A DNA stretch of 64,000 nt from a virus (Duplodnaviria; Caudoviricetes), in IMG/VR virus record IMGVR_UViG_3300028591_000168, positions 15,563-79,562 of that record, one strand, 5' to 3'. Shown piece by piece: positions 36,718 through 64,000 of this stretch (position 1 is its first letter; every line of letters begins with the position of its first letter). The notes below the pieces were generated by a model. The model had not been told where the DNA came from. It did no database searches and saw only the letters and a list, made by a program, of their open reading frames with translations. The position numbers were made by a program, and so were the translations under genes.

Positions 36718-38168
36718 AAATTGTTATCCCTAAAGGCCGCATTGTTGCTTGTGATCCTTATATGGATATCGTTAACTTTGAAAGCAAAAAGTTGTTCAAT
36801 ACAATGACTCTCGCCAACGGTGGTGTGCCTGTACGTCTTCGTGAGGTATCTGACGTTTATCCTACTTGGGGCAAAGAAGCTACTGATATCGTTAAGCCTA
36901 CGTCACAAGGTAACGCAGTGCAAAATGCACAAAAAGAATGGACGCCGCTTGCGGGAATGGCTGCTGCTTACGAAAAAGATGTTTACCGTCCTTTTAAGAG
37001 TAAAACCAGTGCAGAAGAACAACTTGACGCAGCAGGTTATGAAGTTAACAAAGAAAATGGTCGTATTCAAGACAAGACTACGAAGACTGAAGTAGTTAAT
37101 GTGCGTCCCGGTAATATCCCACTCGGTATGCTTGAACGTAATGAATATACCCGTGACGAAGATGCTTTTAACGGTATTATGCCCGGACCTATCCTTACTG
37201 ATCCTATAGTTGAGCTTCCTTGGTTCGCGTATAAGGATAAAGCTGAAGAAAACTTCTGGGGTTCTGCTTACGGTAATCTCTTTATTGGTGCACAAGTTAA
37301 GAGTGACGAAAACGGTCGCGTAACTGTGTCGCCGTTATCTTTCCCTGACAAAGTTAAGGAAATGGAAGTTTTTGAATACGAAATGGAACGCCAGCAAGTT
37401 ATCGGACAGGTTTACGGTGTTAATCACGAAATCGTTCCTGAAGGCGCTGCACGTTGGGCAATGTGGGCACTCGAAGATCGTCTTAACTATGAAGGCTTTA
37501 ATCCTGCTCTTTACTCTAAGAATAATCGCCGTGGTGAAGACAGTGTTAACAGTACTGCTTACTTCTCAACAGGGCGTTATCCCGGATATCCTTACGACAA
37601 GAATTACCTTAATCACGATCTTCATATGTTGGCTTCTACAGGGCGTGGTGACGTCTTTGATCCGCGTATGAACTTTGAGTATCGTTATTCTGATATGGGT
37701 ATCCCCGGCTTAACTGACGGCTTTAACGCTGTAGAACGTGACGTTACGGATCAACTTGCCGGCCGTATTCATTGGGCAGGAGAAGGCAAAGAATATGTAC
37801 CCATGTACTTCCGTACTATCGATATGGGACAGTTTATCACGCCCGGAAGCCTTGAAATTTCTATTGACGGCGCAGCATGGGCACCCCTTAAACCCGGTGC
37901 CAAGATCGCTGTTAATAACACTAATGACATTCTTGAAGCTAAATATGTTTCTGAACTTCAAGGTATTTTTGTTCTTGAAGTTATTGCTGATCTTGACACC
38001 GCAAAGAGTGTCTTTACAACGAAAAAAACTATAGACGGCAAAGAAGTTGACGTTGATAAAGCTGTTGAAGTTAAGGTTCAGTATAAACGTCGTGGTGAAG
38101 CCGGCGTTCCTACCTTTATGGATTGGGACGGAATTTGCGGCTCAGTCTTTATTCTGTTCCAGAAATAA
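36718..38168 (+). CDS. capsid-associated protein, exon 2
   Basis: In frame with ORF 36762..38168; immediately upstream of the major capsid gene. Confidence 0.8.
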
Positions 38169-43973: not shown

Positions 43974-46900
43974 TTGAGTATCTTTGAAAACGAATACGAT
44001 CTTCCGGGCGTATATATGTACGTGTTGCCTGACTACTCGTATGGTTATGATACTTCCCTCTTTGGGTCTACGGATCCTGTTTTGATTATTGGTACTGCGT
44101 TTAACGGCCCTAATAATGGGCAACCTATCGAAATTTACTCTAAAGAACATGCAAGCTATGTTTACGGTAAGGTTTACGATAACGTTAAACAGGTAGAAAG
44201 TAATCTGGTAGCAGGTATCCATGACGCTTGGGATCGCGGATGTCGTACTATTTACGCTTGCCGTGTAGGCGGTATTGACATGTACAAAGATTTTAAGTTT
44301 AACATTGATGTACCTTATCGCTTACGAGTTATGTCCATGTTCCCCAGTAACGTAGAAAAAGAATGTTTTATGCGTTACGAAAACAAAGAGGGGCAAGAAA
44401 AAGTTATTATCTACAAACCTGCAGAACGTGCTACTGTTCTGCAACGTCGCCAAGGTATTGTCGAAGGTGACAATACAATGATTAAAACTACGATCGAAAT
44501 TAACGGTGACTATGGTCTTACAAAAGATACCCCCTTAATGGACTTCATTAATCTTATTAACGGACATGTTGACAATAACGTTATCAAACTTGGTATTGTT
44601 GATCTTAACGGCAAAGACGTAACGAACGATCTTAAAGTTCGTAGTATTGCTGTCGGCGCTCTTTTCCAAGGTATTTACTTCATTGGCAGAGAGCAGTCCC
44701 TTTGTCAAGAAGAAACCGAACTTAAGTTTAATATTATAGATTCTTACAAGGATTACGACAAAAACGGCAAACTTACTACCGTCGAAGGTAAGAAACCGTT
44801 TACGAGATATCAGGGGAATTACTATCGTACTCTCGAGATCAATACTGACGTTAGGACCCCGTATCCTATTTACGCTACACCCGGCACCATGCAAAAGATC
44901 ATGAAGGACGTTGGCATTACTGTTAACGTTAAAATAGGTCGTGAATGGGATTGGCTTGAAGTATATCGTTCTACCTTTAAGGCTTTTGAACCTGACAATA
45001 AAGATTACGAAGAAGTAGAACTTGGCGGCTTTGAACTCTACCAGCGTCTTGGTATGGGTTTTGCAAAAACCGCACAAGCACTCATTCGTAAAAACAGCAA
45101 GGGCGAAATCGTTATTCCGCCTCGTATTAGAGAAACACCGCCTGACAACGCCAATAACATTGTTCAGCTTGTCGATGGTTATTACTCTATTTTACAGGAT
45201 GTTCCTATCAAGTATCGTGTTTTGACCTGCACAACTGCAGAAGCGTCAACCAAGGGTAAGTTGCCCAAAGCTCAACAGTTTATCAGAACCGCACCTATTT
45301 CGCTTGAAGCCCTGCAAAGTATGATTACGATCACACCTAAGGTTAACGAAGAAGATCGTACAATCGCTCGCAGCTACAAGCTTAGGTTCAGAAATCTGCC
45401 CGAAACAAGTACTGCTAACATTAACGAAGTATATCGCTCTGAAGTTTACGACGTTATGTCTATCGTTGACGAAAGTACTCTTAAGGCTATGAAACCCGGT
45501 GACGTTCCTGCTGATACCTACTTCTTAAAGAGAGTTAAGAAGGAAGGTAAAGGTGAAAATGATATCGATGTCAGCGATTACACATACACCTTAGTAAGGG
45601 TCGGTACGACAATCGAAGAAATTGTGTCAGGTGGCATTCTTGCTCATAAAAAAATTATTGGTGTTACTCCTGCTCTTGATCTTACAAGAAATGCCGATAA
45701 CATTACTTTTAAAGATCAGGGTAACCAGTATTACTTCTTTGCTGCGCAAGGTATTCCTGAAACAGAGACCACTATATTCTCTGATCCCAAGTACAGTCTT
45801 GGTGACAAGGAAATTGGCGAGACTACTATTATCAAGTATACGTTTGTACCTCAGGTAGGTGCAGATCTGCTTGGTGATCCTGACGCTGAAGTTCCGCAAT
45901 ATCCGTTTAGAGTAGTTTACTACAACGACGACGGCGAAAAAGTTGAAAAGAATGCCAAGTTTATCTTGGGTTCTCAGCTTGATAACGTCTTTGTTTATCA
46001 GATAGGCGCAGAACAGACAGAGTATAACGAAGGTACAGCCAATCCGACAATTGATATGCCGTCTGCTACAAATCAACTGCAGCCTGTAGGTGACTACAAC
46101 GGTATGATGTCTGACGATCAAAACGTTCCTGTCGTTTACGCAGAAGATATGTTCTATCAGATTAATGACATTATTGTCAACAGTTCTACCTTTGTTGATA
46201 TCACTCTTGATGAATTCGTTGAAACCCTTAATGAACACGAAATCTTCAGCAAAATCTTTGAGATTTCGCTGACTAATCGTGGTGAAAGCTACAAGGACGA
46301 GCGCCTTATCGCGTCAATCTACTTCTGGCAACGCAGTGGTGAAGAAGGTACTTACCTTTACGATGAACAAGCTTTTGTTGACGCCCTTGAGGGGTTGCAA
46401 GATCCGGTTAACGCCTTTACTCTTGACAACAATCCTGTTGAGTGGACACAAGATCGTTCTATTGACTATGATTATAATGCTTACATTCCTTACACTACTA
46501 CTGATAACTTTGCCAGACAGCTTGCACAGCATTGTACTTACACCGAACTTAAGACAGGTTCTACCTGGGGCTTTATCGGTACAGGTCGTGTAGGTGCCGT
46601 TGACGTACAAAGCGTAGGACGTTCCGTTAACGAGATTCTTGCAAAAGACTTTTCTCTTTACGCTAAGAATGCAAGAGGCCGTAATATGATGGATAAAGAA
46701 AATATGCCTTATCCTATCGGACGCAATCTTTCTATTATCTTTACTCAGTACGAAGAACCTATTGACACCGAAGATTATACCTTTATCTCTAACGGTGCAG
46801 CAGGTTACGCAGGTATGGTTTCTACTTTGCCTTTGGATCAAAGTTCTACAAACCAACCATTTAACGTTGAGAAGCTTTCATTCTATCTTGCACGGCACCA

Positions 46901-47303
46901 GCTTGCTGCCCTTAACGCCAAAGGCGTTGTTGCTCTCAAACGCAGCTTTACTCTTGGTACCGTCGTTACAGACGGCACTACCATGGCACCCGTTGAAAGT
47001 GTCTTCCGCCGTCTCAGCGCAAGCCGCATAGTCGGTGCTATCGAAGAACTTATTCGTGCCGTAGCAGAACCTTACATAGGCAAACAAAACCATGACGCTA
47101 ACCGTAATAGTTTACACACAGCTATTAAAGGACAGCTTGATAAGCTCGTAGGTACTCTGCTTGAAGATTATCAATTCCAACTTATCGTTGATAGTAGAGC
47201 TGAAAGATATAATTACATAGATATAGAGTACGAACTCGTTCCTATTTACGAAATTCGTCAGATTCGTAACAGAATCTCTGTTAAAGAACGTCTTACTACG
47301 TAA
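43974..47303 (+). CDS. tail sheath protein (1109 aa)
   Basis: LPGVY N-terminus, LIIGTAFNGP, and sheath C-terminal pattern RRLSASRIV...IRAVAEPYIGK.N...R..L..AI...LDKL. Followed by the tube gene. Confidence 0.85.
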   Translation: MSIFENEYDLPGVYMYVLPDYSYGYDTSLFGSTDPVLIIGTAFNGPNNGQPIEIYSKEHASYVYGKVYDNVKQVESNLVAGIHDAWDRGCRTIYACRVGGIDMYKDFKFNIDVPYRLRVMSMFPSNVEKECFMRYENKEGQEKVIIYKPAERATVLQRRQGIVEGDNTMIKTTIEINGDYGLTKDTPLMDFINLINGHVDNNVIKLGIVDLNGKDVTNDLKVRSIAVGALFQGIYFIGREQSLCQEETELKFNIIDSYKDYDKNGKLTTVEGKKPFTRYQGNYYRTLEINTDVRTPYPIYATPGTMQKIMKDVGITVNVKIGREWDWLEVYRSTFKAFEPDNKDYEEVELGGFELYQRLGMGFAKTAQALIRKNSKGEIVIPPRIRETPPDNANNIVQLVDGYYSILQDVPIKYRVLTCTTAEASTKGKLPKAQQFIRTAPISLEALQSMITITPKVNEEDRTIARSYKLRFRNLPETSTANINEVYRSEVYDVMSIVDESTLKAMKPGDVPADTYFLKRVKKEGKGENDIDVSDYTYTLVRVGTTIEEIVSGGILAHKKIIGVTPALDLTRNADNITFKDQGNQYYFFAAQGIPETETTIFSDPKYSLGDKEIGETTIIKYTFVPQVGADLLGDPDAEVPQYPFRVVYYNDDGEKVEKNAKFILGSQLDNVFVYQIGAEQTEYNEGTANPTIDMPSATNQLQPVGDYNGMMSDDQNVPVVYAEDMFYQINDIIVNSSTFVDITLDEFVETLNEHEIFSKIFEISLTNRGESYKDERLIASIYFWQRSGEEGTYLYDEQAFVDALEGLQDPVNAFTLDNNPVEWTQDRSIDYDYNAYIPYTTTDNFARQLAQHCTYTELKTGSTWGFIGTGRVGAVDVQSVGRSVNEILAKDFSLYAKNARGRNMMDKENMPYPIGRNLSIIFTQYEEPIDTEDYTFISNGAAGYAGMVSTLPLDQSSTNQPFNVEKLSFYLARHQLAALNAKGVVALKRSFTLGTVVTDGTTMAPVESVFRRLSASRIVGAIEELIRAVAEPYIGKQNHDANRNSLHTAIKGQLDKLVGTLLEDYQFQLIVDSRAERYNYIDIEYELVPIYEIRQIRNRISVKERLTT

Positions 47304-47386
47304 CGTTACAATAGTGAAGAAGGAGGATAACTTAGCATGACATATTTTGCTTGGTTATCCTCCATATCCTTAAAGGAGTGAGAATA

Positions 47387-47446
47387 TTGGCAGGAACAGT
47401 TGCAAGTGAGTACACTAAGACTTACACGTCCTTTTCAGGCTGTGAT
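47387..47446 (+). CDS. tail tube protein, exon 1 of 5 (spliced product 226 aa)
   Basis: AAAGGAG RBS then TTG; MAGTVASEYTKTYTSFSGCD. Confidence 0.8.
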
Positions 47447-47770
47447 CGAAACCTGGTATAACTACAACGGAATATACCAAAACTGTGTCACATGATATCT
47501 GAACGATCTTTGGTAAGATATCTGGTAAGTGCGGAATTAAGCGGGAAACTCTCTATGTTTTACCAAATGGACACAAGAGACAACCCGAACCGAAGGCTCA
47601 AAGGACTGAGTCAGGGGCAACGCGTAGATCTTGCAATAACAGATCCAAGAGTCCGCACCGTGAAAAGATCTGTCAGGCTAAAAGATTGCCTGATATCACG
47701 AAGAGGTACGCTGAACTTACAGGTGACTGTAAGAAGACAAGGATAAAAAGCCTTGTCGATAACAACGTCG
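47447..47770 (+). mobile_element. group I intron tube-I1 (324 nt, no ORF)
   Basis: Exon ends GAU and intron ends G. R GGGGCAACGCGUAG, S AAGAGGUACGCUGA. Restores SGCD|IVCTFG. Confidence 0.85.
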
Positions 47771-47827
47771 ATAGTTTGTACATTTGGCAACGTGGTAATT
47801 GGCGAATTACAAGCCATAACGTACCAT
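47771..47827 (+). CDS. tail tube protein, exon 2 (57 nt)
   Basis: IVCTFGNVVIGELQAITYH. Confidence 0.8.
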
Positions 47828-48118
47828 AGAATTATATGTGGCATAATAGAGTGATCTATTATGATAAAACAGGGTGAACCTAGAAATCTAGGGTGTCCTT
47901 CTGATATCTTAATGATAGCGATATAGTAACTGATATCTTGCAGAAGGGCTAACAGGGGAAGCACTATGGTGTTATCCTGTGCCAAGCTTTCGTTAGAAAG
48001 AAGGTCAATCGACTATCCGTAAGGAGTAGGTGCAAGGTGAAATTCCTTGTTCCGAAGCGCCCTGCCCTTCTTATGAAGGTGATGATATAGTCAGAAATTC
48101 ATAATAAAATGAATTTTG
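47828..48118 (+). mobile_element. group I intron tube-I2 (291 nt, no ORF)
   Basis: Exon ends CAU, which pairs with GUGG. R UCAAUCGACUAUCC, S AUGAUAUAGUCAG; ends G. Restores ITYH|VQREKAP. Confidence 0.82.
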
Positions 48119-48141
48119 GTACAAAGAGAAAAAGCGCCGGT
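48119..48141 (+). CDS. tail tube protein, exon 3 (23 nt micro-exon)
   Basis: VQREKAP plus GT; the EKAP motif is shared with the paralog in 50132..53482. Confidence 0.75.
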
Positions 48142-49216
48142 TAACCCATAAAGTATGCCGGCCTAAAATCCTGCTTAAAACGGTGAAGGTTAACACTAAC
48201 GCCGTGGGTAAGATACAGATTGATCTTTATGAGATTTCGTGTTATAATCTGTATCAAAGCCTGTAGAGACTTGGCTACACGAAGCCTTAATGGTTTTCCA
48301 GATCCCCGTAGGGTTGATCATAAAGGAGAGTTTGAAAAGTGAATAATGATAATATGACACCAGAGTTCGCATGGTTCTTGGGATATCTTTTTTCTGATGG
48401 TTCTGTTAAAGATTCAAGTGGTGATGGTATCTTTAATTTTCTTTGTAAATACGATGATCGTGAGTTAATGTATAAAGTGAAAGAAATTTTACAATCTAAA
48501 AATACTGTTCACGAACATCCTGAATATAATAGACCACGTGCACAATTAAGAGTGTCAGATAAAAAAGAACTTTGGCAACAGTATCAAAATATAAAAACAG
48601 TAATTCCTGTTCAAGATATTAAAGGATATGAACGTCACTTTATTCGTGGTGCTTGGGATGGAGACGGTACATTATCAATACGTAAAAGATATGAGACTTT
48701 TCGCATGAGTTTTACTGATGATATCCCAGGAACAGCTCAATGGATTGCTGACCATTTAACTAACACTTTAGATCTTAATCACAAAGAAGCAAGATGGTCA
48801 CCACAAAATAACACTTACGAAATTCAATGGGAAGGAATTACAGCACGTTTAATTGCTTGGTACTTATATCATGGTAATATAAATCATTGTTCTTTAAGCA
48901 GAAAATTACAAAGATACAAGGATTTTATATTACATAACCAGGTATTTACTGAGCCTTGGCAAGAAATGTTATATTCTGTTAAGGGATATATTGACTTTTC
49001 CGGAGAAATAGCTTTTTCATTACCTGGATTGCAGACTCTAGAATGGTGTCAACGTTTACAAAAATTGTTACCATTTAATACTGTACCTGTGTTTCATAAT
49101 AAAGGTAAACGTAAATATTATCATTTATACATTCCACAACATACCATTAACACGCAGGACCTTAACTAAAAAGTTAAGTGAAGGCATAGTCCTTTAGTTA
49201 TGAAATATAACTAAAA
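48142..49216 (+). mobile_element. group I intron tube-I3 (about 1075 nt) with LAGLIDADG ORF; terminal nucleotide appears to be A
   Basis: P1 GCCGGU/GCCGGC. R CUGUAGAGACUUGG, S AAGGCAUAGUCC. Restores KAPV|YTMGS. Boundary uncertain by 1 nt, but both options end in A. Confidence 0.8.
48339..49169 (+). CDS. LAGLIDADG homing endonuclease (intron-encoded)
   Basis: Two motifs, FAWFLGYLFSDGSV and HFIRGAWDGDG. AAAGGAG RBS; AT-rich. Confidence 0.85.
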   Translation: MNNDNMTPEFAWFLGYLFSDGSVKDSSGDGIFNFLCKYDDRELMYKVKEILQSKNTVHEHPEYNRPRAQLRVSDKKELWQQYQNIKTVIPVQDIKGYERHFIRGAWDGDGTLSIRKRYETFRMSFTDDIPGTAQWIADHLTNTLDLNHKEARWSPQNNTYEIQWEGITARLIAWYLYHGNINHCSLSRKLQRYKDFILHNQVFTEPWQEMLYSVKGYIDFSGEIAFSLPGLQTLEWCQRLQKLLPFNTVPVFHNKGKRKYYHLYIPQHTINTQDLN

Positions 49217-49268
49217 ATATACCATGGGTTCAGCAGAACCCAGAAGCTTCTCAAGAGGCAAACGCGGT
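49217..49268 (+). CDS. tail tube protein, exon 4 (52 nt)
   Basis: (V)YTMGSAEPRSFSRGKRG. Confidence 0.8.
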
Positions 49269-49522
49269 GACTTTTAACGCCGCCTCATTCAGTAATGAAT
49301 GATGCTAACAACCTGTGAATTGCTGGAAAGCCTAAGGTTTTACGGAACTATGGTAATCAGCAGCCAAGCCTTGATATCAAGGAAGGTTCAACGACTATCC
49401 GACAGGAGTAGAACTTTTATAAAGTTCGAAGCGCAGGTCCCCTTTTTATAAGGGTGAAGATATAGTCTAGTCCCGCTACAAAAAAGTAGCGTTAAAGTAC
49501 TACGAAAGTAGGGGTATAAACG
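49269..49522 (+). mobile_element. group I intron tube-I4 (254 nt, no ORF)
   Basis: P1 GCGGU/GCCGC. P UGAAUUGCUGGAAA, Q AAUCAGCAGCC, R UUCAACGACUAUCC, S AAGAUAUAGUCUA; ends G. Restores GKRG|IAGTM. Confidence 0.9.
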
Positions 49523-50011
49523 ATTGCCGGTACAATGGTTTTTACGATCTTTGATCGTGACGCCTTACTTGATGGTTTACAGCAGCACGTTGTGGAACAG
49601 AAGAGTTTCCAACGCATAGGCGGTGACGCAATCTATCAGCTTGACAGAAAGACACCGCTTGCTATTGAAGAATGGGACAGTGCAATGACACAAATTGCTA
49701 CTAACGGTACAGCCGGCGTAGCAAGTGTTGACGCAGAACAAACTACAAGAAATATAGCGTCAATAGCTACACCTGTTTACGCAGACGAAATTCCTCCGTT
49801 TGATATTACAATTTCGTTTGCTAACGAGTATGGACAAAAAGCAGTTGTAGTTATTTACGGTGTTGAAATTCTTAACGAAGGATCAGGTTTCTCTATTGAT
49901 AACGTAACGTCAGAGAAAGCGTGTACCTTCGTAGCCCGTCGAGTCGACTATATGCGTCCCGTTGATCGTACTAATAATGACGCAGTTGTAATTACCGGTA
50001 AATCTTCGTAA
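49523..50011 (+). CDS. tail tube protein, exon 5
   Basis: IAGTMVFTIFDRDALL...DEIPPFDITISFANEYG...IYGVEILNEG. Confidence 0.85.
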   Translation: MAGTMVFTIFDRDALLDGLQQHVVEQKSFQRIGGDAIYQLDRKTPLAIEEWDSAMTQIATNGTAGVASVDAEQTTRNIASIATPVYADEIPPFDITISFANEYGQKAVVVIYGVEILNEGSGFSIDNVTSEKACTFVARRVDYMRPVDRTNNDAVVITGKSS

Positions 50012-50069: not shown

Positions 50070-50116
50070 GGTAATAGGAAGATTGAGAAATTGTTCAATC
50101 TTCCTATTTTAGTTTT
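50070..50116 (+). terminator. intrinsic terminator after the tube gene
   Basis: ATAGGAAGATTGA/TCAATCTTCCTAT stem followed by TTTAGTTTTT. Confidence 0.7.
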
Positions 50117-50131
50117 TGGAGGTGATATCAC

Positions 50132-53100
50132 GTGTCGTTATATTCTAACGTAGAGATGGTCATTGCTGCACAAGTAAGAGACTATCTTGATCGAAAGTGT
50201 GACGCTTACTTTGGTACTATGATATCACAAGGTGAAGTTATAACAAGAAAACTGGGTCTTTACGAGGAACAAACATTTAGACTATTACTGTTGTACGAAG
50301 CTTACAAGCAGGTAAGAGTAAAAGATCTTGAGCTTCAAGAATGGGGGCGTGTACATTTATCAGATCTTGAAATTAATCATATTATGGTACTTGTCAGTAC
50401 TTGTCTTGATCTTTGGATAAAACGTTATAAGGTTTTTATCAAAGAACACTCTGATATCAAAGTAGAAGACAGTTTGGCACAAAAATCTAAGGTATTCCCT
50501 TGGGTATGGATGGATCTTAATACTTGGACCAGTGCGCAAGATATTATGACAAGCGCAGTAAGTTCTTTGTACGTAAAGTATAAGGGGCATTACCTGTACA
50601 GGTTTATGCTTGATGACGAGCTTTCTGAAAAACAAGCAATGTTTCCAGGAATTAAGTTTACTGCGATTCCTGATATCAAAGATGAGTTACTGAATATTAT
50701 AGGCGACAGCTTACCTGATAACGTTGATCCTGATATGTCTTCTATTTTTATCGAACACCTTCTTGATAACTTTTATGATATCAGTGATACTACTGTAGAT
50801 GACACCGCAATAAACAGCCAACACAAGGATATTGTTAAACAGAAACACCAAGATTTTATCGAGTATCTCGCACTTCAGGTATTCAGTGATAAAGGATATC
50901 TTTACGATAAGGAAAGAGAAAATGTTAATAAGGCTATAGCTGACGGTGAAGAACCTTCTGTTGATGACTTGGCAGCTTTCTTGCTGAGCAGAGCTGCAAC
51001 AGAGCCATATTACGATCTTAACCTAAAAGACAGTAACCAAGACAGCTATGACGAAGATGACGCCAAGGCCGTTACTGAACTTAACAAAAGTCTGGTTAAC
51101 AATACTGCAATACCGGCTTATTATACAGTGCTATCCCAAAGTAATAAGACGCCTTCTACTGATACTACAGGTTTTGCGTTTGGAAAGAAAATACCTAACG
51201 ATAGTGATATCAGTGGTATCTACAAAGACTTACTGATAATGATAAATGACTACCTAAAAGATCGTAACGCACAAGGATTATCTGTTTTAACCACTACTGA
51301 CGCTGCTGCTTGGTGTTCTTCCTTAACGGATCAAGGCAGTAAGGCTGCAGAAGATAAAGGTATTGACTTATCTTTTATCACACCAGTTATTAACGCTGCT
51401 TGTAATGATCTTATAACTCAGGTATTGCCGTGGATAGTGCCTGACAGTTCTGTTGACACAGGGCGTACGTCAAATTTTAAGAGATATTATCCTTCTTACT
51501 CTGCCAGTACAACTGAAGCTCAGAGATCTACTACGTTTACCAGATACTATCCTTACGATCAACAACAAAGCAGCAGTTCAACAGACAGAACAGCTGACTT
51601 TCAAAGATATTACCCTTCTTATCCTAATAGTACAGCAGTAGAAAGGACTACTGACTTCCAAAGATATTACCCTGACAGTTACCAAGAAACAGAGAGAATC
51701 TCTGGCTTTATAAGATATTATCCTGATAACTATAAGGACGCAGCAAGAACTACGGGGTTTATAAGATACTACCCCGACAATTATAAGGCAAGTGAGAGAG
51801 TCAGTAATTTTGAAAGATATTATCCCGACAATTACGAAGAAGCAGAACGTACTACCAAGTTTGAAAGATACTACCCCGGTAATCAGACGGAGACACAAAG
51901 GGTGTCAGATTTTCAAAGATACTACCCTGATAACGTTACTTACTCACAACGAATAACTAACTTTCAAAGATATTATCCTTCTTACCTTGATACTGTTGCA
52001 CAAAATAACGCACGCACTACTAACTTTCAAAGATATTACCCCGATAATCAGACTGAGACACCACGTACGTCTAACTTTAAGAGATATTATCCTGATAACC
52101 AGGGAGAGACGCCAAGAACTACTACGTTTAAAAGATATTATCCTGATAACACAGGAGAGACTGCACGTATAGGTGACTTCAAAAGGTACTATCCCAGCAA
52201 TTACGCTGAGAGTCCAAGAACGTCTAAGTTTGAAAGGTATTATCCTGACAATTACTGGGAGCGATATCGTACTGACGAGTTTGAAAGATATTACCCCGAT
52301 AATCAGACTGAGACTAAAAGGATAACAAGGCCGCAGACTAAGATATCAACTGCTGCACTTCCTGACAGTTACACTCTTAACGGTACTGTAGCAACAGAAC
52401 TGATGCCTACTTACCGTACTTTCTCAGGTCATGATATGGTAGTTATGGTAGAACTTCCTGTAACAAGTGCTACTACGATATCAAAGATAATAGGCGCCTT
52501 TCAGACTATAACTTACTCTATTCATAACGAAAAAGCACCTATCCGTGTTCTTGGTAATATGAATGCCAAACGTTACGTTTTTGGACCAAGGACTATAGCA
52601 GGGTCTCTTATCTTAACAGTTTTTGACCGTCACTGGCTTAAGGAACTTATGGGAACTTACACTAAGATTAAAAACGATAACGAACAGTATTTCTTGTCTG
52701 ACGAACTTCCCGCTATGAACTTTACGATATCGTGTGTTAACGAGTATGGTCATAATGCCAAACTTGCTATTTATGGTGTAACAATTGTTAACGAAGGACA
52801 GGTCATGTCCATTAACGATGTTTACACGGAAAATACCTATCAATTTTTTGCTACTAACGTTGAGTATCTTGACAGGGTACAGTCAACGTCTTTTGGTAAA
52901 GGAAAGACGTCAACTGTGGTTAGCAGAATTCCTTACTCTAAAGACAATATTTCTGCTGTACCTACCGATAACAGCGAGAATGTTGCGATTATAAGTCCGG
53001 ATACAACAACGCATACGACAGCTGGCAATGATCCTGTTCAAGATGTACCGTCTGTAGCGAAGCCTTACAATCCGTCACCTGCTGTTTGGGACAATAAGTA

Positions 53101-53482
53101 TGCTGATATCATAGGCCAGTACAACAATGATCACAATCAACACAAGGCAGAGGTTGCTCTTAGACAAGCAGCCGTTGACGAGGAACAAGAACGGCTTAGA
53201 AAATGGATGCAAGATGTTTATAATCCTGCGTGCGCAGTTCTGATCCAAAAATATCAGATAGCCAATATCAATGATATCAACGATCCTGCTGTCAAGAAAA
53301 GACTTGGTGAAAAGTATGAAGAGTTTAAGTCGGCCTATAACGCGTTTATAACAGCCAAGGATATTATGACACGAAAGATAAAAAGGGATGTCGATGACAA
53401 ACTTGCAACTAACCTTAAAGAGATCGGCATTGTAACTTTTAACTTTGAAAATGGTTCTAGCCTTGTTGGATATCTAAAGTGA
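50132..53482 (+). CDS. 1116-aa tail/baseplate protein with 16 RYYP repeats and a tail-tube-like domain
   Basis: TFSGHD...FQTITYSIHNEKAP...RTIAGSLILTVFDR...DELPAMNFTISCVNEYG aligns with the spliced tube protein. Confidence 0.8.
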   Translation: MSLYSNVEMVIAAQVRDYLDRKCDAYFGTMISQGEVITRKLGLYEEQTFRLLLLYEAYKQVRVKDLELQEWGRVHLSDLEINHIMVLVSTCLDLWIKRYKVFIKEHSDIKVEDSLAQKSKVFPWVWMDLNTWTSAQDIMTSAVSSLYVKYKGHYLYRFMLDDELSEKQAMFPGIKFTAIPDIKDELLNIIGDSLPDNVDPDMSSIFIEHLLDNFYDISDTTVDDTAINSQHKDIVKQKHQDFIEYLALQVFSDKGYLYDKERENVNKAIADGEEPSVDDLAAFLLSRAATEPYYDLNLKDSNQDSYDEDDAKAVTELNKSLVNNTAIPAYYTVLSQSNKTPSTDTTGFAFGKKIPNDSDISGIYKDLLIMINDYLKDRNAQGLSVLTTTDAAAWCSSLTDQGSKAAEDKGIDLSFITPVINAACNDLITQVLPWIVPDSSVDTGRTSNFKRYYPSYSASTTEAQRSTTFTRYYPYDQQQSSSSTDRTADFQRYYPSYPNSTAVERTTDFQRYYPDSYQETERISGFIRYYPDNYKDAARTTGFIRYYPDNYKASERVSNFERYYPDNYEEAERTTKFERYYPGNQTETQRVSDFQRYYPDNVTYSQRITNFQRYYPSYLDTVAQNNARTTNFQRYYPDNQTETPRTSNFKRYYPDNQGETPRTTTFKRYYPDNTGETARIGDFKRYYPSNYAESPRTSKFERYYPDNYWERYRTDEFERYYPDNQTETKRITRPQTKISTAALPDSYTLNGTVATELMPTYRTFSGHDMVVMVELPVTSATTISKIIGAFQTITYSIHNEKAPIRVLGNMNAKRYVFGPRTIAGSLILTVFDRHWLKELMGTYTKIKNDNEQYFLSDELPAMNFTISCVNEYGHNAKLAIYGVTIVNEGQVMSINDVYTENTYQFFATNVEYLDRVQSTSFGKGKTSTVVSRIPYSKDNISAVPTDNSENVAIISPDTTTHTTAGNDPVQDVPSVAKPYNPSPAVWDNKYADIIGQYNNDHNQHKAEVALRQAAVDEEQERLRKWMQDVYNPACAVLIQKYQIANINDINDPAVKKRLGEKYEEFKSAYNAFITAKDIMTRKIKRDVDDKLATNLKEIGIVTFNFENGSSLVGYLK
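51465..52325 (+). repeat. 16 coding tandem repeats, about 17 aa (51 bp): R-x-x-x-F-x-RYYP-D-N
   Basis: 16 RYYP units counted in the translation. Confidence 0.9.
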
Positions 53483-53494
53483 GGAGGTGTTTTT

Positions 53495-55255
53495 GTGATA
53501 AGACAGCCTATCTGTGTTATCAGAACGTTTAACGACAGTATGTTACTAAAGGTTAACGGTTTTGAAGAAGGTTTTTCTGTCATATGTTGGCAGAAAGAAA
53601 ACGTAGGTACACGATATCGTGCGCAGCTTGTACGGTCTACTGTTATTATCAGTAACTTGTCAGAAGGATCTTTCTTCTTCTACCTTGAAAATCCTGATAC
53701 TAAGGAAACAACGATAATACAACAAGTTTACGTCAGAAGAGAAACACCTTCTTTTATTGTTAACCGACTTTGGAACAGTGCAAAATTGGATAATACACCA
53801 TACAACATTTCTCTTAAAAGATCTTTGATATCAGCCTTAGAAGAAGATCCGACACAGTCATTGCTAACAATTCTGTATAACAAGTTTTGTGCTATTGTTG
53901 ATCTTGAAGACTTTGAAGAGAAAGTTTTTTACCGGCTTTGCGCACATCAAGAAGCTTACGAAAATCTGTTAAACGGTGCAGCCAATAATGACGGTGTAGG
54001 TTTTCCCAAACTTACCGTTTTGCCAAATCCTATTATTCAAGGTTCTGACAGTATTTCTGATATCAAGGTTTATAAGGTAGAAAAAAACAACAAGATTGCG
54101 ATATCACGCTGTTTGTTTGAAGACGGTATCGTAACTTTACCATTATCTTTAGGTCTGTTTGAGATTCACCTTGTAAAAGGTCCTTACCTTTTTAACGTTA
54201 TGTATCATTGTAACTTGTCAGATAACACTATGTCTTGGTTGTGGGAGGATTACCGAGATCGTAACCTTAACTACCTTGATCTTGTAGAAGACGATATCAC
54301 CTTATCTGCTAACCTTGAGGATTTTACAAAAGAAGAAGCCAAACAGTACAAGGAAGAACTTGGTATAACGCCTGCCAATCCTTTCATTCCGCGTATTAAG
54401 GTTGTAGAAGAAGATTATAGTCGTACTGTACAACTGCAGATATCAGGGATAGCCATAGCTAACGCGTCAACGCACACCTTCTTTGTAGCAGGACAAGATA
54501 TCGAGTTTTTGGCAGAAAATAACGTTATGAATGAGATTATTCCTTTGGTAGGAAAGAGCAATGTCGTTACCGTATCTTTTAATCCTGCAACAAGTTTGTT
54601 TGATACCAGCGCCTTGCTTTACGTTGCTGACGAGAACGGTAAAGCTGTGTCAAGAGTTACCCGTTGTCTGTTTGACAGTAACGTTGATACTAATCTTTCG
54701 TCTTACTACGAAAAGATAAGGGTATCAGAGATTAAAACTTACGGTAAGCATCTTGAAACTAACGTTACGGCTTCTTACCCTATTGCGCTGTCTTACGTAC
54801 AAGAAGTTATAGAAAGCGCACTTAACAATGAAGACGTTACTATAGATAACCTTGTGCCTTTCTTGTTAGAAAAGGCAGCGTTAGCACCTGGTGATATCAG
54901 CAAGGATCAACTGTGTATTGAGATTATGAAAGACTTTATAACTAACTCTTACTATAACGTTTCTTTCTTCTCAGGTAATGGCATTTCTTGGAATCCGATC
55001 ACTCATAAAGTAACGGGTGAACCTTCTGATACCGGATATCTGTTGTGTGTTATAGCTAACTTTGACGGGGTCAACGGTTACTCTCTACACTACGTGCACA
55101 GCTTTGCAGATCAAGCGTTAGAACTTTACCTTGAACAGAGAGGTTACTTCGTTGTTTTTGCGATATCAGACTATGACTACACAATGTCAGGATTCCTTTA
55201 CGCCAACACCGACAATAACTTCTTCAAAACTTATCTTCTTGCAGGAGGGAAGTGA
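53495..55255 (+). CDS. hypothetical structural protein (586 aa)
   Basis: GAGGAGGTG RBS; within the tail module. Confidence 0.75.
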   Translation: MIRQPICVIRTFNDSMLLKVNGFEEGFSVICWQKENVGTRYRAQLVRSTVIISNLSEGSFFFYLENPDTKETTIIQQVYVRRETPSFIVNRLWNSAKLDNTPYNISLKRSLISALEEDPTQSLLTILYNKFCAIVDLEDFEEKVFYRLCAHQEAYENLLNGAANNDGVGFPKLTVLPNPIIQGSDSISDIKVYKVEKNNKIAISRCLFEDGIVTLPLSLGLFEIHLVKGPYLFNVMYHCNLSDNTMSWLWEDYRDRNLNYLDLVEDDITLSANLEDFTKEEAKQYKEELGITPANPFIPRIKVVEEDYSRTVQLQISGIAIANASTHTFFVAGQDIEFLAENNVMNEIIPLVGKSNVVTVSFNPATSLFDTSALLYVADENGKAVSRVTRCLFDSNVDTNLSSYYEKIRVSEIKTYGKHLETNVTASYPIALSYVQEVIESALNNEDVTIDNLVPFLLEKAALAPGDISKDQLCIEIMKDFITNSYYNVSFFSGNGISWNPITHKVTGEPSDTGYLLCVIANFDGVNGYSLHYVHSFADQALELYLEQRGYFVVFAISDYDYTMSGFLYANTDNNFFKTYLLAGGK

Positions 55256-57297
55256 TATCTAATATGGCTACCAATACTGCAATTTATGACTCAGAGATAA
55301 AAATATGGCAAGACAGACTTGAAACAGCAAGGACAGTACAAGACGTTGAAACCGCAAAGAACAAGCTGATATCACTGTTTACGGATAAGTGGAAGTCAGT
55401 TACAAGCATTTTCGATCTTGACATTGAGATAGAAAGGCGTCTTTACAAGTACAAGAGCGGTGATACTAATGAGCATATTAATCCTACTACTTACGCGCGC
55501 TGGAAAAGTGTTCTGCAACAGTATGGTAAAAGTGATTACGCATTGTTTTACGCACGAAACCTTATCAGTGTGTCAGATCAGACCGCTGCTATCAGGGCAG
55601 CAAGAAATAAGAAAGATCAACTGCAAGGCAAGACTACTGGTGACACAATAGCGTCTTCTACGGTAACAGAGACAGAACACCCTGAAGAAGACACAACCGG
55701 TACAGTTACCCGGAGCAGTGACGGAACTTACCGACTGTTAACACCTGCAGAAATTATGGCAGCGGCACCAAAAGTTAATATTGATCTCAGTAGTGCTAAC
55801 GCTACAGCACAAAAGACAGATCCGCGTCTTTTGGACAAACGTCCTGCGTGGATTGATACTAATATCGAACAAGCAAGAACCAAAACAGTAGAAGGCCTGA
55901 TATCAAACTCTGCTTATATCAAGAGATACTTCTCAGTTATTGACGCTGAAGTTTACTTCGGCAACGAGTATGTAGAAGATATTCACGATATTAACTGGTC
56001 TGTACAACAACAGGTTATGCCTTTGTTTGGTTTTAACTCATACACTTATGACGAAGTAGCACGGGGTAACAGGATAATCGTAGGTTCCTTCACTATTAAC
56101 TTTACCAACCCTAACTACTTGTTCTCTATTCTTAAGGCAGCTGACAAGGCTAACACAGCTACGGTATCAGCTATGGCCAGCTATAGCGTGCCCAAGCTTG
56201 ATAAGAGTAAAGTTACTAACCGTACGTCAGCTTACGGTGCAAGAGAAGCAGGACACAATACTTGTCTTTGGCCACAAACCTTTGATATCGATATTATCTT
56301 TGGTGAAAAAAGTGAGGCAGGCGATCCCGTACACGTTATTATCTTAGGCGTAGCCTTACAAAATTGTCAAACTGTACTTTCAGCAAGTGCAGCAGGATCA
56401 CCACCTGCTGTTATGGAACAATATAGCTTTATAGCACAAGATATCAGAACAGTTGTAGTATCAGAGAATGACGCTACAGGATATGACTTTACTAACTTAG
56501 GCAAGAGTAAAAAGAGTAACAGTAGCACTGCCAACACAGAACAGGGTAATAGTGATACTACAGACACGAAACAGAGTAATAATGATACCACAGATAAAGA
56601 TCAAGCTAAGGTTACTAACGCTGACGAAGACGATGAACTTACTTACGAAGAAGAACTTGCTATTTCTGAGGCAGAACAAGAAGCCGAAGGCGAAAAGGAA
56701 AAAGCTGACTGGGAAGCTTATCAGAAAGAAAAAGCTAAGGAGGCCGCTAAAGATGCTGAAAAACAAAAAGCAGAAGATAAAGATGAAACAAAAGAACCTA
56801 CTAAAGGAGTGTTACTTGGAAAAACACAAAAGACAGATGCAGCAAACAGTCAATTGACAAAAGCTATTGCTGAAAAGGTAAGTGAGGCCAAAAGTAAAGT
56901 TGATTACGTTGATATTGGAAAAGAATCATATGGTTCAGGAGAAGAGCGGCTCTCAGTAATATTAACTGCTAGTGGATATGTAGGCAAACCTATATCAGAT
57001 CCTGATCTCTGTGTATTGTTAGCAAGACAAAAAACAAATTTAAGTGTAGGAGAACCATTATCTGATACTGAAAAAGATACTTTGGATAAAGCATTAGTTG
57101 AAGCTTTAAATAGGGGTGAATATTTTAAATTTAAGGAGGGTGAAGGTCAAAGTTTTGAGGAATATAAGAATGGCGTAGCATTTGTATATTATTATGAATA
57201 TAACGGAAAACTTAGAGAAGGCTCTTGGATATATACGGAAGATGAAATACAACAATTATTATTACGTACTAATTCACATATGAATAAATCGCTTTGA
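55252..57297 (+). CDS. tail/baseplate protein with tail-tube-like domain
   Basis: YFSVIDAEVYFG...INWSVQQQVMPLFGFNS...RGNRIIVGSFTINF is tube-like. Acidic linker, then an AT-rich C-terminal domain. Confidence 0.7.
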   Translation: MISNMATNTAIYDSEIKIWQDRLETARTVQDVETAKNKLISLFTDKWKSVTSIFDLDIEIERRLYKYKSGDTNEHINPTTYARWKSVLQQYGKSDYALFYARNLISVSDQTAAIRAARNKKDQLQGKTTGDTIASSTVTETEHPEEDTTGTVTRSSDGTYRLLTPAEIMAAAPKVNIDLSSANATAQKTDPRLLDKRPAWIDTNIEQARTKTVEGLISNSAYIKRYFSVIDAEVYFGNEYVEDIHDINWSVQQQVMPLFGFNSYTYDEVARGNRIIVGSFTINFTNPNYLFSILKAADKANTATVSAMASYSVPKLDKSKVTNRTSAYGAREAGHNTCLWPQTFDIDIIFGEKSEAGDPVHVIILGVALQNCQTVLSASAAGSPPAVMEQYSFIAQDIRTVVVSENDATGYDFTNLGKSKKSNSSTANTEQGNSDTTDTKQSNNDTTDKDQAKVTNADEDDELTYEEELAISEAEQEAEGEKEKADWEAYQKEKAKEAAKDAEKQKAEDKDETKEPTKGVLLGKTQKTDAANSQLTKAIAEKVSEAKSKVDYVDIGKESYGSGEERLSVILTASGYVGKPISDPDLCVLLARQKTNLSVGEPLSDTEKDTLDKALVEALNRGEYFKFKEGEGQSFEEYKNGVAFVYYYEYNGKLREGSWIYTEDEIQQLLLRTNSHMNKSL

Positions 57298-58788: not shown

Positions 58789-61759
58789 ATGATGGATAGA
58801 GCCTATTACCGTGCTAACGAGGAGGATGGTAATCCCGTATCTAACGCCTTAAAAGGTGTAGCTGTAGCAGGTGTTGCAGGTTTGGTTATGGCATACCAGC
58901 CATGGGGCAGAAAAGCTACACGTTTTTTAGGACGTGTTGTTGACACAACAAAAAGCACCTTGAAGAGTATGGAAAGCATAAGACAAGGTGCGAGTATAAG
59001 ACATTACACAAAAACTGACTTTAAAAAACTATATGACGAGATTAACACTAACTGGGCTGCGTCAGAAGCTGTTGTAGATCGTCTTGCTCTTAACAAAAAC
59101 AATAACGGATCTTTGGCAGCTTATATCAGGTCAGTAGAAATTACGGTAGCACAAGCAAGAGAGAGAGCTAAGGAAGTATGGGTTAGAGACTACCTGCAGC
59201 AAGATGCCGTTGACGAACTGCTGCAGCAGAACTTTGACCGCGCTACTACAGATAACGTTAAAAGCTTTCTTAGTAAGGCAGTACAGAACGCAACTAACTA
59301 CGCTCGCAATATGGAGATTGCAAGACAACACAAGCTTAAGGATGACGCCCTTGACTTTGCCGATCGTATGTCACAAAGGATTAAGCAACGCTACGATCAA
59401 GCTGTCGTAACAGGGACAGGACATGACGCTGATATCATAGAGAAGATTAAAACCAGTGTAGAAGGCGAACTAAGGAACAGCGCTTACAGTCTTGAAACAA
59501 TGGAACGTGCTCTCGGTACAGCAAGGAAACCTGACGTTGCTACCGAAGCGGTAGAAATTTTAAGCCACGCTCATAAGATGACTTGGAAGGAAGCCAAGGA
59601 TCTGGGTGCAACGTTACAAGATGATACTTTTATAACAGGAGGAAAAAGGATTTCGATCAAGGCTAAAATGCAAGATATCGAAGATTTTATTCTTGACAGA
59701 GGCGGCAATGACGCTTACGATCGTCTAATGCAGATCACTATTGACGAGAGTAATCTTTTTATGACCCATGACAAGAATCCTTTTTCTAAAGAAACAAGCG
59801 GAAATCTGTGGCTAAACTTTTTGGGCGCTGCCCGTAATACTTTACCCGGTAAACTTTTTAAAGTAGGCGACATTGATAACGCCCTTAAAATACCTGCTGT
59901 ACAGTTGATATCATTATCGGCAAGAGACGACGTATTCAGAGCAAAACTTAAAAAGATAGGGGAAGAAGATAAGTATCATTTCAGAATAGGTAAGGATATT
60001 TTTACACTTGACATTAACGCGCAACAAGGTGCACGAGTATCCTTTAATCAAGAACTTAATAACGGTGATATCAAGTTTGTGTCAGGACGTTACGGTTTCT
60101 ACCATACCCAGCTTGAGGCACTGGCAGGAAGAACAAAAATGGTTCCTGCAGGTAACGAATTGTTTAGAAAACTTGATATCTTTCAAGACAGAGAAGAGTA
60201 CACCGGGTCTGTTATAACAGACAAACTGTCAATGTTTATCGGTGAAAATCAGAGACAAAGACGTTTCGAAGAACAACTTGAAATGTCTTCTGAGTATAGA
60301 CAAAAATGGTCTAACGCTGTAGCTGACCTTCACCATTTTTCTCGTTTGTCTGCACCTGACTTTAGAACAGATCTTTCTGAGGAAACAAAAGATTTTGTTC
60401 TTGAGTATATGGAAACAGCCAAAAAGATATCAGAGCTTTTCAGGACAAATACTTATCACCCTATTAGAGGTATTATAGAAGAACTTATACAAAGTCCTGT
60501 TATTAACCCAAAAAGTAGAGAACTGTTTGAGTTATTGTTAAGAGATAATACAGAAGAAATGACAAAATACTTTATAGGCAGGGGTGCTCGTGGCCTTCTT
60601 AACGTTAGAACGTCGGCAGCTACTGTACCTGTTAATTACCTTAACAATGACTTACAAATTCTCATAAGAGGTACTGTCAATAATCCTGAGATTACACAAA
60701 ACAGAATAGATCTTGTTACTAACGAACTCAGACTTTCTTACGGTTCTGACTTCATAAACCTGTTCAGGACCCCAATGACTAACACTACCTATACCTATGG
60801 CGATATCATAAGACGTGAAATAGCCAAGGAAGCATTGCTGAGACAAGGTCTTGACACAAGCGTACCCGGTGAAGTTAAAGTTCACTACGATCAAATTAAC
60901 GAACTTTTACAGAGCGTTGATCTGTCAGAACGTAATGCTAAAGAGATAGACAAACTTGCACAATTCAGCATATGGCAACACTTTACGGGCGTTAACAAGA
61001 GACCCGCTGTAGATAACGCCATGTACTTGGATTATATGCAAAGGATGAACAGAACTGATGAGCTGTTGCGTGGTACAAGTGACGTTGCCAAAAAGTTCCA
61101 AGATACTTATCGTACCGTTATGGGTGACGAGATATCATGGCTTGAAGAAGAAGCAGCTGACGCAGTAGCAGGTGTAGAACAACTTGATGATTACGTTGTA
61201 GTCAACAGAGCTGCCGGTCCCCTTGATATCGTTAAAGGTCTTGCCAAGTCAATTTTGGAACGTGACACAAGCTTGATCAAGAAAGAGATATCTAACGTTA
61301 TAGGCGGTTTAACTGCAAATCGAGAGGATATGTCTCAAGCTAATCTGTGGACTTTTGTACCGTTCTTTACAATGAAACGCCTTTCTGACGAACTTAACAA
61401 AGTAGGCTTAGGTTTTTCGTCAGACAGTATGAAAAGTACAGGTGACTTGGCAGCAGCTTTTATGTTGAAAAGAGTATTGCCTATAGCAGTAGGCGCTACT
61501 TACCTTGACTGGTCTGACGACGTTACCAAAAGAGCTACAGGTACAGGTCTTTGGGAAGCTTTTACAAGTGGTGTCGCTAACGTTGACTTAGCAGGACGCA
61601 GGGTGATATCAAACCTGGGTCTTGACGAATGGCTTAAACAAACCAAGGCTGTTAATCCCATATGGCAGTACTGGGGTGACAAAGACGATTACCAAGGTTA
61701 CGAAGAAAGAAAGGAATATTACGAAGAAGGTTATGTTCCCGTAAGAAAAGCTGCTTGGT
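58789..61759 (+). CDS. tape-measure-like giant virion protein, exon 1
   Basis: Long helical ORF after the chaperones; continues after an intron. Confidence 0.7.
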
Positions 61760-62023
61760 CAGTTGGCCACGCTGCGTAGTAATACGCAGATGAAAAATCG
61801 CGGTATTAAGCTGGAAACCTGAAATGGTAATCAGAACCGAAGGCTAATTTCAGATTAGTCAGGGGCAACGCATAGCAAATGAAAAGATATAACTTTGCCA
61901 AGAGACCGCGACACGCTAATACCTTTAACGGATAAAGATATTAGCGTGAAAAGATATGCTGAACTCACAGAAACAGTAACTGTGAGAACTAAAGGATAAA
62001 AAGCCTTTAGGATAACAAAATTG
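61760..62023 (+). mobile_element. group I intron TMP-I1 (264 nt, no ORF)
   Basis: Exon ends UGGU, which pairs with GCCA. R GGGGCAACGCAUAG, S AAGAUAUGCUGA; ends G. Restores RKAAW|WTWGG. Confidence 0.85.
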
Positions 62024-64000
62024 GGACATGGGGCGGCATAGCCGAAGCCCGTGGCGGCGAAATTCAATACTGGGAACCTAACATTGTCAGACGTGCAAGT
62101 CACGCGTATAAGGATGCGTCACTGTACGGCAACAATATGTGGGACAAGTGGAGTCATAGTTTAATACCTACACCTACCAATCCGCTATCACCTTTGTTTG
62201 CTGTCCTTGATCCTTACTGGATGGAACGTGAACATAAGCAAGATCGTCCTTATCCGATATCAGGCCCAATGTTCACTGAAGGTACACCTTGGGGGGCTGT
62301 CCTTAATCCTACGATAGGGCGTCTTATCAAACCAGAAAGAGAAGAACACTCGTTAAGGTTAAGACACGGTATCGATATCGTTTCACTTTTACACAATGCT
62401 AACGTCTCTATCAGAGAACGTGCTCGTGACTTTACAAGTACACATTACTTGTCTATCAAGGGTAAAGAAGTTACCGCAGTAGACTTTAACGTTTGGAATG
62501 CACCTACTCCCGACACCAGTGTGATATCAGTACAAGCTACCAGTGGTGGTCTTGCTACAGTAAGATCAGGAACTTACGGTATTTACGGCAGTGGTGACAG
62601 GGGATACGGTATCGGATCAGCAGGCGGCAGTGCAATGGGATCTTACACTGCGCACGATCTTGGAAGAGCACTTGGCGGCGGCTACGATCAAAACGTAATA
62701 GCCGGCTTTAACGAACTTTCACAAGATCCCCAAGCTAACGCACACTTAATGGCGCACTCTGAACGTTACACTATTCCTGAGCTTGCAAGACAAGCCTTGT
62801 TTGGTACGTCAGATTACCTTGTAAGACACGGTGACGTTGTAGTTAACGAAGAAGGAAATCTCGGTATTTACCATAACAGACCTTTATCCAAAATTAAAGG
62901 TGACGAGTTTAACCCCTTAGAAAAAATCGCTATCAGCTCTGTAGTCAGCCCTGTAGCAAGAGAAGAAAAACAAACGATCCTTGAGATATCAAAACAGTTT
63001 GATCCTTATAATACTGTAGCTAAGATAAACAAGGGAATTATAGCTGCTGCAAGAGAACACGTAGACAGTCCTTACGCTGTTGACGATAACGAAGGATTTA
63101 CGAGCACAGAAAAGCTTGGATCTTTTAATCCAAGTATGTCTATGCAACTTCTTGAAGATCCTGAAGCAGTAGCAGATCTTATGGCACAAGGCAATGGTGC
63201 GTCGTTTGTTCGTAACGCAAGTACAAGTTTAAGGCTTATAGGCGGTATCTACGGTTACATGGGATCTGAAGCTGTAGGCTTTGGCGTCCATAACGAAAAA
63301 CAGATTGCCAATTCCTCTGATATGTATAACTTCACAAGGACATTTTGGGATCTTAATCTTGGTGGTTTTGGCGGTGCCGTCTCAGAAATAGGACGTCGTT
63401 TTATTCCTAACTATCAACGTTTAACTAAAGTTAACCCACTTATGAATAATATGCCTGACTGGTTACCGGAAAGGTTCAGATATGGAGACGCATTTTCCCT
63501 TATTCCGAAAGGTGAAATGAGATTACCCGGTGCAGGTTACGAAGAAGGTAACGAACTGCACCCTGACGCTTACGGAGTTTACGGATCTTTTGACCGTTTT
63601 AAGATTCTTGCTGATATCGCACCTCACAGTCCTGAGTATAGACTATGGCGTGAGATAGCAAAGAAGACGGTAACTGACCCTGAACTTCTGCGGGAAATGA
63701 AAGATATCCAAAAGCGTGCACAACAACAAGGTAAAAAGCACGATTTCTATCCTTACAAACTTGCAGGTGAAAACTTATCTCGCAGTAACTTCTTAATGTC
63801 TGCTTTTAACGCTAAAGATATCAACTATCAGAACGTTGTGATATCAGAAGTCCTTGGTAATGGTAAGTTCAGGTCAGGCGGCACTGTTTACAAAATGGCA
63901 GGCATTACCGTTAAAGGTAATGGTGAAGAAACAGCACAAGAAGTATTACAAAGATATCTTACACCGGGACAAGAAGTTACAATAGCTGTAGATACCAATA
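62024..64000 (+). CDS. tape-measure-like protein, exon 2 (runs off the window; absent from ORF track)
   Basis: Read codon by codon, the frame starting at 62026 has no stop to 64000 (W-TWGGIAEARGG...NPLMNNMPDWLPERFRYGD...). Confidence 0.85.

Follow-up and report, generated by a model that had tools for sequence, protein, structure and literature searches.

A predicted tail tube gene interrupted by four group I introns in a very large phage

We analyzed a 64,000-nucleotide (nt) stretch of DNA from a virus of the Caudoviricetes (IMG/VR record IMGVR_UViG_3300028591_000168, positions 15,563 to 79,562), referred to here in its full length as the window, and characterized a predicted tail tube gene at 47387-50011 that is divided by four group I introns. 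The gene, its signals, exons and introns as well as the adjacent sheath and paralogue genes are located on the plus strand. Five exons join in frame to a protein of 226 amino acids (aa), and their coordinates are exact to the base. Exon 1 (47387..47446, 60 nt) encodes aa 1-20, exon 2 (47771..47827, 57 nt) aa 21-39 and the micro-exon 3 (48119..48141, 23 nt) aa 40-46 together with two nucleotides of codon 47. They are followed by exon 4 (49217..49268, 52 nt), running from the last base of codon 47 to aa 64, and exon 5 (49523..50011, 489 nt including the stop codon), which encodes aa 65-226. As read from the sequence, translation would begin at a TTG codon (47387) preceded by the ribosome binding site AAAGGAG at 47372-47378 (whole start region 47372..47389), and this TTG aligns with the ATG of intact homologues starting MAGTVATEY. 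A terminator-like element composed of a 15-base-pair (bp) hairpin (50073-50108) and a T tract lies downstream of exon 5 at 50073..50118. The exact phage is also present on a 354,821-nt ENA contig and can thus be regarded as very large (roughly 355 kb, uncultured).

When homologues of the last exon were sought, one of the proteins recovered (P0001, 226 aa) proved identical to the joined product as predicted; uninterrupted 218-aa homologues (P0004, P0007 and P0010) were recovered as well, and these read across all four junctions. P0001 is coded without interruption on JGI contig Ga0255062_10002524 (L004, 5571 nt; JGI 3300024345), and the same four joins were found at 100% identity to the window on two further contigs, L078 (Logan SRR7634034, 5189 nt) and L079 (JGI 3300037675, 1113 nt). 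These three joined contigs align to the window in five blocks corresponding to the five exons, the first being a 100% block ending at 47446 and the micro-exon being an exact block in all three, with breaks at 47446/47771, 47827/48119, 48141/49217 and 49268/49523. All four junctions are fixed to the base, and the introns are therefore 47447-47770, 47828-48118, 48142-49216 and 49269-49522. Judged by the joined contigs, which we presume to be of RNA origin, and by the intact homologues, excision restores the reading frame exactly. The five exon lengths and the 226-aa product had been proposed in an initial annotation made from the sequence alone, and every coordinate recurs in the joined contigs and P0001. 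The same annotation held that ordinary gene calling would see the last exon only; this is the case for public DNA contigs, where gene callers report a single 158-aa open reading frame (ORF) at 49535-50011 (P0268).

The joined contigs very probably derive from RNA, as indicated by several lines of indirect evidence. Over 5.5 kb they match the window at 100% identity, silent exon bases typical of intron-bearing alleles included, and they lack all four introns together; both observations favor RNA as their source. For instance, they read TATAC beside the I3 site where empty sites of relatives read TACAC. RNA origin is further favored because the joined contigs, at 1.1-5.6 kb, are short and have their ends at 50064, 50064 and 50048, 9-25 nt before the terminator, while the long DNA contigs of the exact phage retain the introns: the 354,821-nt ENA contig and a contig from SRR8436538 both show the split layout with gene spacing identical to the window. 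The 23-nt exon gave no match when JGI metagenome contigs were scanned for its exact pattern, and a literature search on the sample and run accessions of the joined contigs found no mention of them.

All four inserts are group I introns, and their splicing is presumably self-catalysed. Intron 1 (I1; 47447..47770, 324 nt) is IA-like, contains no ORF and ends in G47770. Its P1 helix comprises 6 bp including the U·G pair (47441-47446 with 47487-47492), its P10 comprises 7 bp (47771-47777 with 47480-47486), and an in-frame stop follows after four codons. Intron 2 (I2; 47828..48118, 291 nt, no ORF) ends in G48118 and has a P1 of 4 bp with U·G, a P10 of 3 bp involving exon-3 bases 48119-48121 and an in-frame stop after eight codons. 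Intron 3 (I3; 48142..49216, 1075 nt) is again IA-like and is the only one of the four to carry an ORF, here for an endonuclease; it has a P1 of 6 bp with U·G (48136-48141 with 48157-48162), a P10 of 4 bp (49217-49220 with 48153-48156) and a stop after three codons, and it ends in A49216. Intron 4 (I4; 49269..49522, 254 nt, no ORF) ends in G49522, with a 5-bp P1 including U·G, no P10 pairing (0 bp) and an in-frame stop after two codons. The 5' splice site thus follows the U of the P1 U·G pair in four of four introns, and a terminal G is found in I1, I2 and I4 but not in I3. The initial annotation had given every intron its own P1, R and S elements, which is borne out for all of them apart from the missing terminal G of I3. 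Inteins, frameshifting and recoding were considered as other origins of the inserts and ruled out by stops in all relevant frames, the ribozyme pairings and the absence of the inserts as exact blocks from the joined contigs.

The four introns differ in how they are recognised by the Rfam group I model RF00028, for which the gathering score is 50 bits and local search results were reported up to E<=10. I4 scores 87 bits (E 8e-21), above the gathering score, and I2 scores 34.6 bits (E 1.5e-6), below it. In pairwise comparison, I2 and I4 are the only related pair (66% over 131 nt) and the gene therefore contains three ribozyme lineages. Relatives of I1 were found in tube genes of other phages (L037, L036/L068, L072 and L085) and in the window itself at about 61774-62025. 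We tested the core of this class on a five-sequence alignment of I1 and four relatives, covering P3, P4, P6, P7, the P7-P3' hairpin, P8 and P9.1 and keeping the order of the P3/P7 pseudoknot. In total, 89.3% of cells were paired compared with 31-44% for slid partners, and 18 of 41 pairs showed compensatory change, a value reached by none of 500 shuffles. The P7 of this class reads GCGUA/UACGC rather than GACUA/UAGUC, which is probably why Rfam misses I1. For I3, relatives at the same site (L025, L041 and L032) were available. P1 covaries between the window, L025 and L041 (GCCGGU/GCCGGC, CACCGCU/GGCGGUG and CUCCGGU/GCCGGAG), and, in the small sample of three to four sequences, P3 covaries perfectly (CCUGC/GCAGG, CUUGC/GCAAG and UUUGC/GCAAA) and P8 is a different, fully compensatory 6-9 bp hairpin in each sequence. 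P7.1 and P7.2 of I3 also covary with the same-site introns.

The I1 relative in the window would itself be a probable intron (about 61774-62025, approximate bounds; about 66% similar to I1; no RF00028 match). It lies between ORFs 58789-61779 and 62137-63999+ and would split a very large virion gene.

The joined protein scored 181.7 bits on phrog_9206 compared with 85.3 bits for the last exon alone; it matched no Pfam family, and a profile search of solved structures by sequence gave no match. The spliced product was modelled with AlphaFold, a check that the initial annotation had suggested. Using a diverse alignment of 96 sequences from a library-wide search (2682 relatives), a mean predicted local distance difference test (pLDDT) score of 83.3 was obtained; this model replaced an earlier one from 46 close homologues which was too poor (pLDDT 47). 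A tube fold resulted: the top Foldseek match was the tail tube of phage 812 (8q01_G, E 1.5e-8), followed by the PVC, AFP, HFTV1, diffocin and lambda tubes, all with probability 1.00 and template modelling (TM) scores by target of 0.6-0.69. Around aa 75-150, the model shows an additional helical insert. The tail sheath gene (43974..47303, 1109 aa; phrog_16991, E 3.9e-51) lies directly upstream of the tube gene with its start at 47387, and the sheath gene and the joined tube gene are found on the same contigs. Based on modelled fold and position, the gene at 47387-50011 is a tail tube gene, and the joined contigs, fold, P1 and P10 pairings and ribozyme cores all agree with the original description, in which four group I introns split a tail tube gene. 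A tblastn search located further family members in the Bacillus jumbo phage 0305phi8-36 (ORF140) and in phages related to it, among them one with the annotation "tail tube protein". Elsewhere the family carries the label "major head protein" (phrog_9206; GenBank NC_009760 ORF140, OR602862 and NC_041884), which is probably wrong because it is contradicted by the tube fold and the position after the sheath gene.

A strong hairpin is present at 47314-47372 between the sheath stop codon and the tube ribosome binding site. Its Rfam match to mir-7177 was rejected as chance (E 0.054, far under the cut-off).

Downstream, an uninterrupted tube-fold paralogue of 1116 aa is encoded at 50132..53482, with the tube domain at aa 749-919 (phrog_9206, E 8.6e-35). 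The joined protein P0001 aligns with this domain by BLASTP at 31% identity (E 2e-27) across every junction, as had been claimed for the spliced product from motif similarity. A third tube-like domain is found in 55252-57297. Upstream of its tube-fold domain, the 1116-aa paralogue also contains about twenty tandem repeats of about 20 aa with the motif (F/Y)xRYYP(D/S)N (aa about 430-750; window 51400-52400).

Relatives at 80-99% identity carry differing subsets of introns in the tube gene. One of them (L080) has I1, I2 and I4 with the I3 site empty, a second (L077) has I2 and I4 plus an additional I4-like intron in exon 5 at window position 49800/49802, and a third (L076) has I4 only. A single I2-like intron at a different site was found in L075, and L072 and L085 contain an I1-class intron one base off the I3 site. 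The I2 copy of L077 is about 90% identical and the I4 copies of L076 and L077 are 96-98% identical to those of the window, all at the same sites. Among IMG/VR relatives, 13 of 65 have a split tube gene. For the family as a whole, at least ten insertion sites were mapped (aa 20, 39, 41, 41-43, 46+2, 47, 49+2, 60-61, 64 and 69-70), and, judging by truncated products, there may be two or more additional ones farther downstream. In the window, the introns cluster in codons 20-65, the most conserved stretch of the gene, presumably because conserved DNA offers a reliable homing target. This stretch forms the long strand pair of the model, which would line the tube by analogy with solved tail tubes.

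In L077, a LAGLIDADG ORF at 714-1469 lies between the sheath gene and tube exon 1, outside recognised introns. The large terminase gene of the window is apparently in at least three pieces (25705-26214, 26472-27137 and 27388-28065); an Rfam group I intron was detected in one gap (26182-26440, 55 bits), and the 3' part of a second insert (27309-27384) resembles I1. Finally, a group II intron at 34483-36717 (Rfam D1-D4 plus domain V) with a reverse transcriptase ORF (35064-36626) is flanked by ORFs 32887-34227 and 36762-38168. As a test of RNA origin, we looked for this group II-interrupted gene in joined form and found none.

I3 requires separate consideration on account of its ORF and its 3' end. 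The ORF (48339..49169, 276 aa) is located between P7.2 and P3' and encodes a putative LAGLIDADG homing endonuclease, matching Pfam LAGLIDADG_3 (PF14528) at 32.7 bits (cut-off 22.5) and phrog_4645 (endonuclease) with an E value of 6.6e-18. Two motif-like stretches, LGYLFSDGS and RGAWDGDGT, can be recognised in its translation, and a promoter-like site precedes it at 48220-48248 (TTGATC-17-TATAAT with TG, 10 of 12 matches). ORFs about 60% identical to it are carried by the introns of L025, L041 and L032. Alleles with an empty site are represented by L080, L076 and L077. Empty I3 sites read ...GT(T/C)TACAC... and occupied sites ...TATAC..., the latter pairing with the guide sequence. The endonuclease is presumably active.

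The last base of I3, A49216, is fixed by the unshiftable junction 48141/49217, while the introns of L025, L041 and L032 end in G. In these relatives, the tail after the 3' strand of P7 is 6-8 nt long compared with 24 nt in the window, where a hairpin (49193-49215) is followed by the single A. Inside this hairpin, at an ancestral-looking distance, lies G49202, a canonical G located 14 nt upstream of the observed end; splicing there would lengthen the joined product by 14 nt and put it out of frame. P10 of I3 pairs with the observed start of the 3' exon and not with the sequence after G49202. A pattern scan of IMG/VR for further I3-class 3' ends returned only the two already known. To our knowledge, a terminal G is treated as universal among group I introns. 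Either the terminal A of I3 is a real exception, or it is a sign that the joined contigs are not the product of I3. We see the chances as evenly balanced that I3 ligates exons after a 3'-terminal A, an inverted duplication having placed the hairpin 49193-49215 between P7 and the splice site; tube output could then depend on which of two sites is used, the canonical one being non-productive and the productive one non-canonical, with the LAGLIDADG protein perhaps acting as maturase. Elsewhere in the family, in L023, L024, L034 and L035 (1380-nt intron at aa 41-43) and in L036 and L068 (260-nt intron), no boundary gives both a 5' U and a terminal G. Non-canonical boundaries may recur in this family, or the protein-guided boundaries may be off.

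Taken together, we consider it highly likely that 47387-50011 encodes the main tail tube protein of a large phage with a contractile tail and that four mobile group I introns, each acquired independently, have cut the gene; they belong to three unrelated lineages (I1; I2 and I4; I3). A late transcript of sheath and tube would extend over the full 2.6 kb as far as the terminator (about 50073-50118). In the first step of splicing, guanosine would attack after the U of the P1 U·G pair, and in the second, the freed exon end would attack the 3' splice site aligned by P10. The in-frame stops 2-8 codons into each intron would halt ribosomes running ahead, and the LAGLIDADG endonuclease of I3 would carry this intron into alleles that lack introns. 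On this reading, the introns resemble selfish passengers rather than a control device. Several points weigh against this account. I3 ends in A even though G-ending relatives have an identical P7, the helix that binds guanosine, and standard group I chemistry would lead one to expect poor exon ligation after a terminal A. RF00028 gave no match to I1 or I3 at E<=10. The covariation for I1 was obtained from five sequences, two of them nearly identical, with helices partly derived from the same sequences. Lastly, the argument for RNA as the source of the joined contigs is indirect, and an intron-free sibling strain could formally account for them.

The initial annotation had proposed that the four introns and the shared 23-nt exon impose ordered splicing or exon skipping and gate tail assembly by timing or limiting the supply of tube protein, a proposal we regard as unlikely. 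In its favor, exon skipping has been documented around the 23-nt exon of Twort orf142 and in a Bastillevirinae gene (PMC10136302, PMC11878797). In the window, I2 and I4 are related, a skip from the 5' site of I2 to the 3' site of I4 would remove 75 nt in frame, and I3 has the competing non-productive G. The micro-exon indeed serves both P10 of I2 and P1 of I3, as had been noted, but the two pairings (48119-48121 and 48136-48141) use separate, non-overlapping exon ends and there is therefore no conflict that would force an order of splicing. Moreover, the introns flanking the micro-exon, I2 and I3, are unrelated, and every exon is present in all three joined contigs, which as assemblies could hide minor isoforms. 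Close relatives do without some or all of the introns, so that none is needed for the life cycle. Ordering, skipping and gating thus found no support.

A further explanation, which we judge very unlikely, is that the joined contigs represent DNA of an intron-free sibling phage, the window copy being mis-spliced at I3 through the G49202 frameshift, or stalled, and hence defective or dependent on co-infection. The absent terminal G of I3 with a canonical G 14 nt upstream would fit this explanation, and intron-free alleles do exist on long DNA contigs of relatives, such as that of P0007 on a 334-kb contig. However, such a sibling would have to match the window at every position of 5.5 kb, whereas the nearest relatives differ by 1-20% and have other silent bases at empty sites, and it would have to lack all four introns together. 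Its three contigs would all have to be short and stop before the terminator even though the 354,821-nt contig contains the introns, and mis-splicing at G49202 is further contradicted by the P10 pairing of I3 with the observed exon start. That the inserts are assembly artefacts or pseudogene-making insertions has a negligible probability: although the window is a metagenome assembly, the gene spacing recurs in independent assemblies (the 354,821-nt ENA contig and one from Logan), and the inserts have P1 and P10 pairings and cores of their own, each restoring the frame exactly.

The split tube gene is of interest for annotation, intron ecology and ribozyme chemistry. It illustrates how badly gene calling fails on intron-rich large phages, as public assemblies give its main tube protein as a 158-aa ORF without the N-terminal part. 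Within the tube family, the first 70 codons constitute a dense intron hot-spot: at least ten sites are used by three or more ribozyme lineages, of which one escapes the Rfam model. In a structural gene, this provides useful material for the study of how introns compete and how homing sites are chosen. Provided that the joined contigs are RNA, they represent natural evidence of four accurate splicing events in one late mRNA and a natural test of how strictly a terminal G is needed.

In comparison with known systems, the introns resemble phage introns of subgroup IA of the T4 td/nrdB/sunY type (general description in PMC3984707) in their extra P7-P3' hairpins, the U·G pair at the 5' splice site, nearby in-frame stops and the optional endonuclease ORF in a peripheral loop. 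They differ in the GCGUA/UACGC P7 of the I1 class, which escapes RF00028, instead of GACUA/UAGUC, and in the missing terminal G of I3. Tube proteins of the same family in 0305phi8-36 (ORF140), KLEB27-3 ("tail tube protein") and Moorella phage MTATph1 show 39-51% identity over about 90% of the length. As in the window, tube-fold paralogues follow the tube gene in this group, but its tube genes are uninterrupted. Terminase and DNA polymerase genes with multiple introns are known from Bastillevirinae (PMC11878797), and the intron-rich Jug phages of the gut average 18.5 introns per genome (PMC12880540). Common features are two or three group I introns in one essential gene and small internal exons, with splicing confirmed by RNA reads in those phages. 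The genes affected there serve DNA metabolism and packaging, in contrast to the tube gene, and introns had colonised only such core genes in the set of PMC11878797.

The closest precedent is orf142 of Staphylococcus phage Twort, later recognised as a tail tube gene, which is interrupted by three group I introns, includes an internal exon of 23 nt and undergoes exon skipping (Landthaler & Shub 1999 via PMC10136302 and PMC11878797). The view of the initial annotation that phage introns are best known from DNA-metabolism genes, with some in late genes, had left out this structural case. In both phages the tube gene directly follows the sheath gene and contains several IA-type group I introns and a 23-nt internal exon, and the tube of the Twort-related phage 812 is the best structural match found here. 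No sequence similarity between the Twort tube protein and that of the window was detected. There are four introns here compared with three in Twort, and they lie in codons 20-65 of 226, whereas those of Twort lie near the 3' end of a 142-codon gene (Rfam matches at NC_007021 16606-17506, starting about 330 nt into the gene, which begins at 16272). The possibility that the Twort 23-nt exon marks the same site was rejected on this basis; since the insertion sites differ, the shared exon size is a coincidence. In Twort, near-identical introns flank the small exon, which is the proposed basis of skipping, while I2 and I3 here are unrelated, and one intron here has a LAGLIDADG gene and a terminal A. 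The four-intron tube gene of the window extends the known three-intron case of Twort.

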